Shown here in pieces: positions 33,441 to 37,122 of a stretch of DNA of 64,000 nt (position 1 is the stretch's first letter; every line of letters starts with the position of its first letter). The notes under the pieces are model-generated. The model ran no database searches and was not told the origin of the DNA. It saw only the letters and a list, made by a program, of their open reading frames with translations. Position numbers and translations under genes: made by a program. The stretch is from an uncultured Pseudomonadales bacterium (GTDB lineage: Bacteria; Patescibacteriota; Microgenomatia; UBA1400; PJMF01): NCBI GenBank assembly GCA_964633875.1, contig CAZWKL010000005.1:12412-76411 (forward strand), in the 5' to 3' direction.

Positions 33441-34505
33441 CGTAACAAACAATCATGAAGACAGCTTTTTTATGAGAGTTTGATCCTGGCTCAGGATGAA
33501 CGCTGGCGGTGTGCCTTAGGCATGCAAGTCGAACGGGAAGTCTCCTTCGGGAGACAGAGAGTGGCAGACGGGTGAGTAACGCGTAGGAATCTACCCAGTA
33601 GTGGGGAATAGCCCACCGAAAGGTGGGGTAATACCGCATACGATCGCAAGATGAAATCTACCGCAAGGTGGAGCTATTGGAGGAGCCTGCGTGCTATCAG
33701 CTAGTTGGTGGGGTAATGGCCTACCAAGGCGACGACGGCTAGCCGATGTGAGAGCATGATCGGCCACAAGGCTACTGAGACACGGAGCCTACACCTACGG
33801 GTGGCAGCAACCGGGAATATTGCGCAATGGACGAAAGTCTGACGCAGCGACACCGCGTGTGGGAAGACGCTCTTCGGAGTGTAAACCACTGTGGCGAGGG
33901 ATGAAGTTCTGACAGTACCTCGCTAGAAAGCACCAGCTAACTACGTGCCAGAAGCTTCGGTAATACGTGGGGTGCAAGCGTTATCCGGATTTACTGGGCG
34001 TAAAGGGTCCGTCGGCGTCCCTGTAAGTCTCTTGTTCAAGCCCGAGGCTCAACTTCGGAAAGGCAAGGGAAACTGCAAGGATAGAGTTTGTTCGAGGAAA
34101 CTAGAATTCTTGGTGGAGGGGTGAAATCCGTAGATATCAAGAGGAATACCATGCGCGAAGGCAGGTTTCTAGGACATAACTGACGCTCAGGGACGAAAGC
34201 TTGGGTAGCAAATGGGATTAGAGACCCCAGTAGTCCAAGCTGTAAACATTCCTTGCTAGTTGTCCGCCTTTGGGTGGATGACGTAAGCTAACGCGTTAAG
34301 CAAGGCGCCTGGGGAGTACGACCGCAAGGTTAAAACTCAAAGGAATTGACGGGGGAGCGCACAACCGGTGGAGCATGTGGTTTAATTCGATACAAAGCGA
34401 AAAACCTTACCCGGATTTGACATGTACCTGCACGTCTGCCGAAAGGCAGACTTCTTCGAGAGTGGTACACAGGTGATGCATGGCTGTCGTCAGCTCGTGT
34501 CGTGA

Positions 34506-35393
34506 ACAAAAAACTCGCGACCCGTACTAGAAATGGTACGAGAAAAATCTGGCTCATATCGGTGAAGTCCGGTTATCGCAAACTGTTTGCAAGGAAATTC
34601 TTGTAAACTTGCCATAATGGATAATACCGAGGGAAGTCGGGTAATTACGAGTGTCTTTAGAGCTCGGAAAAATCTTGAGCTCTGTTTAACTAATCGTCAA
34701 ATGTCCATAGTTCTAGGTTCAATTCTCGGTGACGCTTATGTCCATCCAAAAGGAAAAATCTGCTTTGAACACTCAGAGCAGCAAAAAAATTACCTTTTAT
34801 GGAAGTATGTAGAACTAAAGAATTTAGCTTATCCTCAAGTAGCAAAAGTTACTCGTAAGGATAGGCGGAACAACAAACAGACAATTAGTTGGCGGTTCTT
34901 CTTGAGGCAATATTTTCGCCCCCTGAGAGCTGCTTTCTATTTCAAAGGCAAAAAAGTAGTACCAGATGATCTTAATCTTTGGTTTACGCCCTTGCTTTTG
35001 TCGGTCTGGTACATGGATGACGGATACCTTGATCAAGGAAAATACCCAGTTTTTATGACTGAGTGCTTTGATAACAAAAATATAAGTCTTCTAACAGAAA
35101 TGTTAAGAGAAATATTTAAACTGCAAAGCATTATTACTTCCAAGAACAGGATCCGTATAGTTAGTAAAAGCAGAACACAATTCTTTTCACTGATAGAGCC
35201 GCATATTACTAAAGACCTCAAATATAAATTACCCTGACCCCGTAACGACTGGAAGCCGCTTATCAGGCGGTGGAAGATCCGCCCCAGGCGGATAACACGC
35301 CAGCCCCTATTTTCTGTAATTGATTTCTGTAATTGATTATAGAAAAAGGGTGAAGGTATAGTCTGGCATTTAGAGTAATCTAGATGGTTTTGG
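34506..35393 (+). mobile_element. 16S intron 1 (about 0.9 kb, probably group I) with homing endonuclease ORF
   Basis: The sequence between 16S exon GTCGTGA and the resumption GACGTCTATTTAAGTATAGTAACGAGCGCAACCC. Boundaries are approximate to within a few nt. Confidence 0.7.
34587..35237 (+). CDS. LAGLIDADG homing endonuclease (double-motif) encoded in 16S intron 1
   Basis: Motifs LGSILGDAYV and VWYMDDGYL. The start may be internal (MSIVLGSILGDAY). Confidence 0.8.
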   Translation: MQGNSCKLAIMDNTEGSRVITSVFRARKNLELCLTNRQMSIVLGSILGDAYVHPKGKICFEHSEQQKNYLLWKYVELKNLAYPQVAKVTRKDRRNNKQTISWRFFLRQYFRPLRAAFYFKGKKVVPDDLNLWFTPLLLSVWYMDDGYLDQGKYPVFMTECFDNKNISLLTEMLREIFKLQSIITSKNRIRIVSKSRTQFFSLIEPHITKDLKYKLP

Positions 35394-35700
35394 AGACGTC
35401 TATTTAAGTATAGTAACGAGCGCAACCCTTGCCGTATGTTATACGTGTCATGCGGGACTGCCTGTGCATTGCACAGGAGGAAGGAGAGGACGACGTCAAG
35501 TCAGCATGTCCCTTACATCCGGGGCTACACACATCCTACAATGGGGTAGACAACAGGTATAGCAACAGCGCGAGCTAGAGCCAATCCTCTAAACTACTCC
35601 TCAGTTCGGATTGGAGGCTGCAATTCGCCTCCATGAAGCCGGAATCGGTAGTAATCGCAAATCAGCAGGTTGCGGTGAATACGTTCTCGCTCCTTGTACA

Positions 35701-36606
35701 AATAAATATGCGCCTTCCGCGCATACTATCCAGTTAGTTTAAATCTAACGTGTCATAAGCAAGTAGACACAAGCAAAATTGCAAGCCTATCCGGGTAACC
35801 GGCAGGCTGAAGGGCAAAAGTAGCGGTGGTCAGCTTGGAGTTTAAACGGCATAGTGCTGTGAGGATCCTGCGTACAACTGGAGAACTCACTTGCTAACAC
35901 AAACAGCACTCTGTATGTGGGCTCGAGATGATCGCGAATGGATAGTATGTGAACGAAGGGAGATCCTGTTTGCTCTCTATTTGATGCAAAGAAAATAGAG
36001 TATAGTGAAGGTAACAACACTAAATTAGTAAGCAGGAAGTCTGCAGAGGTCATAGTATCAGCGCCTTGGCGTTGAGAAGGACCAAACTTAGTGTCATGAA
36101 ATTGTCTCCTGAATATGTGTGCGGGTTTGTTGATGGCGAAGGTTGCTTCACTATCACCATTGCCAAGCACAAACAGAAAAAACTCGGCATCGATGCCCGT
36201 CTTCATTTTGAGATTGAAGTGCGAGCAGATGATATTGAAATTCTGAGAAGAATTCAAGAAACGCTGGAGTGTGGCAGAATATATCATCTCAATTATGAGA
36301 GGTATGGCTGGCATCCCCATGCAGAATTCAAGGTTTCTTCTTTAAAGGACATTAGAGAAAAAGTAATACCATTCTTTCAAAGGTATCCACTTCAGGCAAA
36401 GAAAAAGGTTGCTTTTGACCAATTCGTTAAAGCAGCAAAGATTTTTGCCGAAAAGCGACACCTAACCTCAGAAGGTATTAAAGAATTAAAACAAATCAGG
36501 AAACAAATGAATATATATAGACACCAAGGGTTCGCCACGGTGCGGGAAAACCGCGCGCCGGGCGGCGAGAGACACATGAATCAGTGATGACATGATGATC
36601 TCAGAA
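35701..36606 (+). mobile_element. 16S intron 2 (about 0.9 kb) with homing endonuclease ORF
   Basis: Insertion between CCTTGTACA and CACTGCCCGTCAAGCC. Boundaries are approximate. Confidence 0.7.
36096..36587 (+). CDS. LAGLIDADG homing endonuclease (single-motif) encoded in 16S intron 2
   Basis: CGFVDGEGCFTITI is the LAGLIDADG motif. The ORF track extends the start to 36066. Confidence 0.8.
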   Translation: MKLSPEYVCGFVDGEGCFTITIAKHKQKKLGIDARLHFEIEVRADDIEILRRIQETLECGRIYHLNYERYGWHPHAEFKVSSLKDIREKVIPFFQRYPLQAKKKVAFDQFVKAAKIFAEKRHLTSEGIKELKQIRKQMNIYRHQGFATVRENRAPGGERHMNQ

Positions 36607-37122
36607 CACTGCCCGTCAAGCCAGCAAAGTCAGCAACGCCCGAAGCGGGTGACCGTAATTATCTTTTGATGAAGCGGCCCTTCTACGGCGAGGTTGGCGA
36701 TGAGGACTAAGTCGTAACAAGGTATCCGTACTGGAAGGTGCGGATGGATCACCTCCTTTCTAAGGAGATGGGTAGGAGCAATCACGACCTCCTGTTTCCC
36801 GCGCTTAGTAATAAGCGCAAAACAAATTAAAAAAATCCCGTGGCTATCATACCCGGGCCGTGTCCGCCGGAAGCGGATCGGCTCTACCACCATGTTTGTG
36901 TCAGAATTCACTTAAACATTTTCCAAACTTTTGTTAATTTCAGCAAGAATTGGTCAAGCCAGTGAGCTAGTTTAATGATATCTTCTATATCAAAACATAT
37001 CTTTATACATCATTTTTCCTTGATACATCAACCAGAAAAATTTCAGCCGCAATTTAGCAGTCTTTTTTCTTGTCTGCTAATTACTACTTCACACCATCTC
37101 ATAATCTAGTTACAATAACTGA

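Follow-up and report, generated by a model that had tools for sequence, protein, structure and literature searches.

The 64,000-nt stretch of DNA analyzed here (contig CAZWKL010000005.1, positions 12,412 to 76,411, below referred to as the window) carries on its forward strand a 16S ribosomal RNA (rRNA) gene that is interrupted by two insertions. We consider it very probable that this is a single functional 16S gene of a bacterium of the candidate phyla radiation (CPR) which two independent selfish elements have entered, each of them a self-splicing ribozyme combined with the gene of a LAGLIDADG homing endonuclease. The initial annotation of this DNA had proposed exons summing to about 1.49 kb and two introns of about 0.9 kb each. 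The joined exons measure 1495 nt, in agreement with this, and both insertions proved to be true introns, with ribozyme cores backed by covariation. Their class had been left open; with the intron models of Rfam and with folding, intron 1 came out as group I and intron 2 as group II. Chance is ruled out for the matches of the rRNA and of the two open reading frames (ORFs), because their E-values are 1e-247 and 1e-23 to 1e-31, respectively.

The bacterial small subunit model of Rfam (RF00177) matches the + strand at 33476-34309 with 784 bits, model position 9 falling on 33476. When the region was searched alone with Rfam, the joined alignment covered model positions 864-1389 with a single gap of 890 nt between 1069 and 1071. 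A second gap of about 906 nt separates the sequence ending in CCTTGTACA from the 3' exon, which starts with CACTGCCCGTCA, and the gene ends with GGATCACCTCCTTTCT at 36761. With the junctions chosen here, the exons have 1028, 308 and 159 nt (33476 to 36765). The insertions had been placed at about 1070 and about 1395 of the E. coli gene: the second position stands (1395/1396), but the first has to be corrected to U1078, since 1070 is the coordinate of the Rfam model. The gene is composed as follows:

about 33468-36761, + strand: 16S rRNA gene in three exons, 5' end approximate
33468..34503, + strand: 16S exon 1, E. coli about 1-1078 (RF00177); the junction between GCTCGTGTCGT and G is set by the intron-less allele of the sister genome L003
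35393..35699, + strand: 16S exon 2, E. coli 1079-1395 (Rfam alignment; junctions)
36606..36761, + strand: 16S exon 3, E. coli 1396-1542, ending with GGATCACCTCCTTTCT

Intron 1, after U1078

The limits of intron 1 could be read from a natural intron-less allele. In the closest relative, L003 (CAZESB010000003.1), whose 16S gene is 97.6% identical, the sequence passes uninterrupted from GCTCGTGTCGT to GAGACG, and this fixes the intron at 34504-35392. The boundary is ambiguous by 1 nt because the intron has a G at both its start and its end. Its parts are:

34504-35392, + strand: intron 1, group I (IA-like), 889 nt, after E. coli U1078 (L003 allele; covariation structure; Rfam)
34514..34521, + strand: internal guide sequence, CTC (P10) and GCGAC (P1) (covariation with exon variants)
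34617..35237 (ORF 34587/34617-35237), + strand: endonuclease 1, a 206-aa double-motif LAGLIDADG protein, I-SceI-like, in the P6a loop (Pfam, PDB)
35235..35392, + strand: 3' half of the group I core, with P6' (GACCCC), J6/7, P7 (GACT), P8, P9 and the terminal G 35392
35255-35271, + strand: P7.1
35276-35293, + strand: P7.2
35299-35303, + strand: P3', GCCAG
35352-35363, + strand: J8/7-P7', GAAGGTATAGTC

Judged from its covarying structure, intron 1 is a group I intron, IA-like. Covariation was analyzed among 11 homologues, all located at the U1078 site. These include the genomes L004, L005, L006 and L011, and six more were obtained by scanning metagenomes with the core motif TGACCCCKTAACGACT, among them the ORF-less L119 and L182. 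We counted a hand-built structure of 50 pairs on the MAFFT alignment of the 11 sequences. Altogether 91.1% of the cells are paired; column shuffles gave 75.9%, none of 500 attaining the observed value, and sliding the partners gave no more than 47%. Of the 50 pairs, 27 change on both sides.

The pairings with the exons covary as well. In P1, the guide GCGAC pairs with exon GTCGT at 34499-34503, and the U.G pair at the splice site is present in 11/11 homologues; the exon/guide variants are GTCGT/GCGAC, CAGGT/GCCT, CACGT/GCGT and CATGT/GCAT, with two P1 pairs changing on both sides. In P10, CTC pairs with GAG of the 3' exon at 35393-35395, and the variants are GAG/CTC, GAC/GTC and GAA/TTC. A terminal G precedes the 3' exon in all 11 homologues. 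In the proposed reaction, the guide would pair with both exons through P1, with its U.G, and P10, and a guanosine-initiated transesterification would cut after the terminal G, so that removal of intron 1 would ligate GUCGU to GAGACG.

Within the core, P3 and P4 are 100% paired in 11/11 homologues, each with five to six sequence variants and 3 covarying pairs. P6/P6a is 91.5% paired and P8 88% paired, and the P6a stem GGGTAATT/AATTACCC covaries. Moreover, all homologues form hairpins P2, P5 and P8, although the sequences of these are unrelated, and all except one form P9. Two hairpins of likewise unrelated sequence, P7.1 and P7.2, lie between P7 and P3' in 10/11 homologues (the fold of L178 is less clear), and intron 1 is therefore placed with subgroup IA; P7.1/P7.2 are used in group I classification (PMC3984707). 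The J8/7-P7 sequence GAAGGTATAGTC agrees with the Rfam consensus GAAGAUAUAGUC, and the core motif TGACCCCGTAACGACT...GAAGGTATAGTC, which marks a large family of rRNA introns, was found in at least 126 places on metagenome contigs, mostly in 23S introns. GCCAG at 35299 was also tried as the 5' strand of P7 and was rejected: by covariation it is P3', pairing with CTGGC at 34549, and P7 is GACT/AGTC. Our guess is that intron 1 corresponds to '16IS7' of Tsurumaki et al.

The initial annotation had assigned a double-motif LAGLIDADG ORF to the first insertion and a single-motif one to the second, and the motifs it quoted are present. Endonuclease 1, whose gene is also called in L001, matches LAGLIDADG_2 of Pfam (PF03161) with 4e-31. 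It aligns over its full length with I-SceI (PDB 1r7m; E=1.6e-13, residues 22-206), together with the two catalytic motifs, ILGDAY and MDDG. Its ATG lies within the 3' strands of P5/P4 and its stop codon TGA within the 3' strand of P6.

Two metagenome contigs, L100 and L106, hold homologues of intron 1 at U1078 in exons that resemble those of ordinary non-CPR bacteria (GAGATGTTGGGTTAAGTCCCGC). Therefore, the family of intron 1 may not be confined to CPR.

Intron 2, at 1395/1396

The second insertion has the following parts, including exon-binding site 1 (EBS1), the partner of intron-binding site 1 (IBS1):

35700..36605, + strand: intron 2, group II (IIC-like, 'rns-1396'/'16IS9' family), 906 nt, E. 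coli 1395/1396 (RF01998; covariation)
35700..35712, + strand: 5' linker of 8 nt (AAATAAAT), followed by ATGCG, a variant of the GUGYG motif (alignment)
35872..35877, + strand: EBS1 GUACAA in a hairpin loop of domain I; its partner is the last six exon bases, UUGUAC, 35694-35699
36000..36082, + strand: domain II/III segment, GGAAGTCTGCAGAGGTCATAGTA...GAAGGAC (Rfam group-II-D1D4-1)
36096..36587 (ORF 36066/36096-36587), + strand: endonuclease 2, a 163-aa single-motif LAGLIDADG_1 protein, in domain IV (Pfam PF00961, 3e-23)
36532..36565, + strand: domain V, TCGCC-A-CGG-TGCGG-GAAAA-CCGCG-CG-CCG-GGCGG, with CGC triad and 2-nt 3' bulge
36569..36602, + strand: domain VI; A36598, at position -8 from the 3' splice site, is bulged (minimum-free-energy folds)

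By its Rfam match and its covarying domains, intron 2 is identified as a group II intron, not a group I intron. The model group-II-D1D4-1 (RF01998) matches it with 46.8 bits, against a gathering score of 35 (E=1e-6), and matches 9 of 10 homologous introns tested in the same relative place. To collect homologues, the endonuclease 2 alignment was scanned against species-representative genomes, which gave 23 genomes with an intron at this site, or 24 with the window; the 23 are mostly labelled Patescibacteria, Microgenomates, Pacebacteria, Saccharibacteria, Kaiserbacteria and similar.

Across these 24 genomes, EBS1 and IBS1 covary in five exon/loop combinations, the others being UGCACAC/GUGUGCA, UGUACUC/GAGUACA, UGCACUC/GAGUGCA and UGUACA/UGUACA. 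For this comparison we used direct readings of the loops; an automated EBS1 search sometimes chose stem bases. The pairing with UUGUAC favours a 5' splice site after C1395 (35699), with an ambiguity of 1 nt in the register, as 35701-36606 (1396/1397) would give the identical ligated sequence. A start of the intron at ATGCG was rejected because EBS1 pairs with the UUGUAC directly upstream and because AATAAAT would stay in the mature 16S rRNA, a 7-nt addition to the universally conserved strand 1396-1400.

In an RNAalifold analysis of 12 sequences we recovered the closing stem of domain I, the stem of domain II and internal helices of domain I, with 28 of 43 pairs changing on both sides; the closing stem of domain I, for example, is CCUUC/GAAGG in one subgroup and CCUGG/CCAGG in another. 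Even between the window and L003, a stem in domain I shows the compensatory change G35793A/C35800T (G-C to A-U). A cassette swap at the tip of domain III (window TCAGCGCCTTGGCGTTGA, L003 TCCGCCTACGGCGGA) was also considered and then dropped, as two more base pairs in the stem and a changed loop account for it.

The homologues fall into four subgroups, A-D, and intron 2 of the window belongs to subgroup A, with its 8-nt linker, bulged A in domain V and GAAAA loop. The helices of domain V are fully paired in 21/21 members of subgroups A-D, and they covary. Domain V has an (A/C/G)GC triad, a bulge of 2 nt on its 3' side and a loop of the form GAAA(A), and L005 has the canonical AGC/GUU triad. In domain VI, nearly all folds of subgroups A-D have a single-A bulge 4-6 bp above the base (L006 has an internal loop). 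Since this bulged A is retained, lariat formation is still possible, unlike in many linker-bearing fungal introns. The assignment to IIC comes from the literature, the size (about 440 nt of ribozyme outside the ORF) and the site; intron 2 is described here as IIC-like.

Endonuclease 2 matches each half of I-PanMI/I-OnuI (1e-45) as well as the 170-aa single-domain enzyme 5gkk, and presumably acts as a homodimer. Within its motif GFVDGEG, residues D13, G14 and E15 are invariant in 28 homologues. Over 420 nt, the window and L003 differ at 17 nucleotides and only 3 amino acids, i.e. 14 silent against 3 replacement changes, and endonuclease 2 is evidently under purifying selection. Its last 19 codons or so run through domain V into the loop of domain VI; the homologues read domain V in different frames, and the tail of the protein therefore appears to be shaped by the RNA.

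For intron 2, EBS1 would bind the exon sequence UUGUAC, domain V would provide the active site, and a lariat could form at the bulged A of domain VI. We infer that both introns splice, with excision and ligation; the predicted spliced junctions join GCUCGUGUCGU to GAGACGUC and CCUUGUAC to ACACUGCCCGUC.

Several observations weigh against this interpretation. Both endonuclease ORFs overlap the ribozyme core and could disturb its folding; such overlaps are known from other introns and need controlled expression (PMC3984707). The model Intron_gpI (RF00028) gives intron 1 only 21.5 bits, below its gathering score of 50. In the window the ORF splits the model; the ORF-less homologue L182 is matched end to end with 32.4 bits (E=5e-6), which is still below 50. 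P7 of intron 1 (GACT/AGTC) is invariant in 11/11 homologues, hence without covariation and uninformative. As for intron 2, the model of domains V/VI (RF00029) found no match at E<=1, and domain V of the window contains an additional, family-specific bulged A on its 5' side and a 5-nt GAAAA loop. Moreover, the ends of intron 2 deviate from the usual pattern, with AUGCG after a linker and not GUGYG at +1, and with ...AGA or ...GAA and not AY at the 3' end; introns of subgroups B and D end in AU.

Fragmented rRNA, produced by excision without ligation, occurs in some bacterial 23S genes. The two insertions might likewise be intervening sequences excised by RNase III or another nuclease, leaving the 16S rRNA in three pieces. 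Tsurumaki et al. (PMC11270868) allow such a type for some CPR insertions, and the non-canonical ends of intron 2 and its missing Rfam match for domains V/VI would fit. We nevertheless give this explanation a slight chance only. P1/P10 and EBS1-IBS1, which are relevant only to splice-site choice and ligation, covary with the exons; complete ribozyme cores are kept across 11 and 24 genomes; and helices 34-35 (h34-35) and the decoding-centre strand 1395-1400 would be poor places for a permanent break.

Host, sister genome and neighbouring sequences

The initial suggestion of a CPR host agrees with the identities of the spliced 16S sequence, which are 85-91% to metagenome-assembled genomes (MAGs) of Pacebacteria/Patescibacteria and 72-74% to other phyla, and with the named endonuclease 2 homologues, which are Patescibacteria/Microgenomates. 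On these two grounds the host is probably a Microgenomates-type CPR bacterium, with which the label of L003 conflicts. The record of L003 bears the title 'uncultured Pseudomonadales bacterium'; to judge from 16S, introns and flanking genes, L003 is a CPR organism of the Microgenomates type, and the label looks wrong.

L003 has the 1396 intron in common with the window (97% identical) and lacks the intron at U1078. Instead, it carries at 3621-4508 a group I intron of 888 nt, located after E. coli U1498; this intron holds a LAGLIDADG ORF of 229 aa and is absent from the window. That two 16S genes of about 97.6% identity differ in their introns at 1078 and 1498 shows directly that introns were recently gained or lost in a CPR lineage. 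Both introns of the window would spread as DNA: the endonuclease would cut an intron-less 16S allele, and repair would copy the intron in. The homing targets would then be the intron-less site of the L003 type, GCTCGTGTCGTGAGACGTCCAC, and the intron-less 1396 site, CCTTGTACACACTGCCCGTC. Activity and homing are predicted for both endonucleases.

The sister genome and a second assembly also bear on whether the gene could be an assembly chimera of 16S fragments and introns from different organisms. It is true that rRNA genes are notoriously mis-assembled in metagenomes, and the sister MAG is mislabelled 'Pseudomonadales'. The window, however, is part of a 93.6-kb metagenome contig of the European Nucleotide Archive (ENA), whose assembly holds the contig independently and with the identical arrangement, and the adjacent ClpB gene is found on three long contigs. 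Moreover, an independent MAG has exon 2, intron 2 and exon 3 at 97% identity with the same flanking genes, and identity to L003 stays at a uniform 97.1-97.6% from exon to exon. A chimera has hardly any chance of being the explanation.

One part of the 16S exons deserves separate description, as the initial annotation had called the region of primer 515F altered, and indeed it differs from the primer at three positions:

33945..33966, + strand: variant 515F/530-loop site, GTGCCAGAAGCTTCGGTAATAC (Rfam alignment, coordinates)

The site reads GTGCCAGAAGCTTCGGTAA in place of GTGYCAGCMGCCGCGGTAA. The changes C522A and G527U preserve the pair 522-527 of helix 18 (h18), which is shown in the structure line of Rfam. 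The pseudoknot pair 505-526 is established for E. coli 16S rRNA; here C526U is matched by G505A (33935), giving CCAGCUAAC in place of CCGGCUAAC, and this pair is preserved as well. All four changes are also present in L003, and L005 and L009 carry only the 522/527 swap (A522/U527). As the changes amount to two compensatory pair swaps, the gene appears to be functional and adapted, not decaying. Standard surveys would miss it, given three mismatches to 515F, an intron within the 1392R/1406R site and a 27F-1492R amplicon of 3.3 kb.

This bears on a third rival explanation, namely that one or both introns are splicing-dead and the 16S copy is dead or dying, the functional one being located elsewhere. 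The view is limited to 64 kb of the genome, domain V is atypical and the ORFs overlap core helices, all of which would be compatible with a dead copy. Against it, the exons retain full Rfam similarity with compensatory swaps in the 530 loop, both ORFs are intact, intron 2 is retained in L003 at 97% identity, with one stem changed in a compensatory way and an ORF that differs mainly at silent sites, and CPR genomes usually have one rRNA copy (PMC11270868). We rate a dead copy as slightly less probable still than excision without ligation, and a little more probable than a chimera. Taken together, the three rivals are unlikely because elements that serve only in ligation covary with the exons, because constraint acts on exons and ORFs alike, and because independent assemblies agree. 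A functional 16S gene with two introns is thus the reading we keep.

Downstream of the gene we found the following:

37123..40303, + strand: NUDIX gene 37123-37581 (2e-14), ClpB-type chaperone 37602-40166 and tRNA-Ile(GAT) 40229-40303

It had been noted that the 16S gene is unlinked from tRNA-23S and followed by a NUDIX gene. This is correct: NUDIX and ClpB come next, and no large subunit or 5S rRNA was detected at the Rfam threshold within the 64 kb of the window. The NUDIX gene has no counterpart in L003, whose 16S trailer meets ClpB after about 70 nt (L003 4885-4958). Promoter and terminator scans gave nothing beyond the expectation from shuffles. At 36750-36775, the anti-Shine-Dalgarno sequence CCUCCUUUCU at the 3' end of the 16S is followed by AAGGAG, and CUCCUU/AAGGAG could pair in the precursor. 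The Microgenomates MAG L006 has a further group I intron at 3609-3847 (Rfam 57 bits, above threshold), about 90 nt past its site-1396 intron and possibly within the 3' region of the 16S, so that a single 16S gene apparently has three introns within it or close by.

An 87-nt segment (33379-33465) that L003 lacks immediately precedes the 16S gene. Its first 44 nt repeat the 5' end of the 16S as a pseudo-copy whose helix 1 (h1) loop is replaced, giving the hairpin GATCCGCC-GCA-GGCGGAT (GATCCGCCGCAGGCGGAT), and the remaining 43 nt hold a boxA-like CGTAACAAACAATC. P7.2 of intron 1 is formed by a nearly identical hairpin, with the palindrome at its tip. The similarity includes the 3' flank, up to P3' (35276-35304), with a local alignment of 32 nt scoring 36, compared with 17.5 +/- 2.4 in shuffles. 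The window contains five copies of the palindrome TCCGCC-NNN-GGCGGA (15 nt), compared with an expectation of 0.12. Two copies stand inside truncated 5' pseudo-copies of tRNA-Phe and tRNA-Val(GAC), 74-81 nt upstream of the intact genes, where an 11-nt segment of the D-stem 3' strand/anticodon-stem 5' strand is replaced by the identical palindrome TCCGCCTACGGCGGA. The sister MAG has a palindrome-bearing copy of tRNA-Phe about 230 nt downstream of the intact gene, and no palindrome copies were found in the more distant relative examined. The positions are:

window 3013-3092 and 61058-61131, and L203 850-925: tRNA 5'-half pseudo-copies with palindrome
window 3032, 32999, 33397, 35278, 36863 and 61081: CCGCC-N3-4-GGCGG sites

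More generally, CCGCC-N3-4-GGCGG is by far the most frequent GC-only 5-bp hairpin in 1 Mb of fetched CPR-rich rRNA loci, where it was counted 65 times against a median of about 7 (~9x). It often caps intron helices (P6a, P7.2, P8) or stands in rRNA leaders, and is then followed by ACGAA or the boxA-like AACAA. It may be a leader hairpin of the boxB type that recurs, a palindrome that is small and mobile, or a scar left by integration. That a third element besides the introns is present, i.e. a small mobile palindrome or mini-integrative element targeting CPR stable-RNA genes, seems rather unlikely; if mobile, it would be comparable to the GC clusters of yeast mitochondria or to Rickettsia palindromic elements.

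Comparison with known systems

Intron 1 can be compared with two well-known group I introns. The group IA2 architecture of the T4 td type has P7.1/P7.2 between P7 and P3' and an ORF in the P6a loop, and intron 1 has the same placement of P7.1/P7.2 and of the ORF. With the omega intron of yeast mitochondria it shares an endonuclease homologous to I-SceI over its full length and an rRNA host gene for a group I intron. It differs from both in host gene and site (16S U1078), and its ORF starts and stops inside core helices.

Turning to intron 2, Salman et al. are said to have described in 2012 an intron of the rns-1396 type from Thiomargarita/Thiotrichaceae, and we take the site names used for Thiomargarita to be S1078 and S1396. 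Liu et al. 2026 (PMC13190283) describe a bacterial rns-1396 family of group IIC introns with a single-motif endonuclease in domain IV and without EBS2; a 5' linker is present in all its members, and the family was found only in Thiotrichaceae. Intron 2 has in common with this family the site 1396, a small ribozyme, the single-motif endonuclease in domain IV and the 5' linker. The likeness is drawn from descriptions, and homology of the RNA backbones would follow by inference. The hosts differ, being Gammaproteobacteria in one case and CPR in the other, where the bulged A of domain VI is kept.

Group II introns of fungal mitochondrial rRNA genes (Li, Costa et al. 2011; Mullineux et al. 2010; cited in PMC4424553) also have 5'-terminal insertions and LAGLIDADG ORFs. 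They are similar to intron 2 in the rRNA host gene, in LAGLIDADG rather than reverse transcriptase, and in splicing upstream of GUGYG. They differ in their IIB1 backbone, in mostly double-motif enzymes and in a branch A that is often lost. Endonuclease 2, for its part, resembles each half of fungal I-OnuI-type enzymes.

The closest system is that of CPR itself. Tsurumaki et al. 2024 (PMC11270868) reported insertions in 48% of CPR 16S genes. Those of the group II-like kind are confined to 16S position 1400, and 39/53 of these encode LAGLIDADG_1; a comparison with this literature, which the initial annotation had recommended, shows that intron 2 stands at the same site. In addition, they found group I introns at several 16S sites, with ORF-less and ORF-bearing forms sharing sites, and LAGLIDADG_2 proteins of ~210 aa were common (PMC11270868). 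Intron 2 is like their '16IS9' (position 1400) in host clade, 16S site, Rfam group II signature, lack of reverse transcriptase and a single-domain LAGLIDADG_1 ORF of about 165-180 aa. '16IS9' was classed by Rfam match only in PMC11270868, whereas the domains, EBS1-IBS1, the branch A and subgroups A-D are resolved here.

Therefore, the introns of the window belong to described families, in a group of bacteria already known for such insertions. The present analysis adds an explicit fold, the covariation seen in exon recognition, the finding that the branch A is retained, and the presence or absence of introns between sister genomes. CPR group II introns with LAGLIDADG are missing from the 2026 survey, and the 24 sequences in four subgroups could fill this gap. 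Both endonucleases are compact, natural and aimed at universally conserved 16S sites, and they are possible tools.

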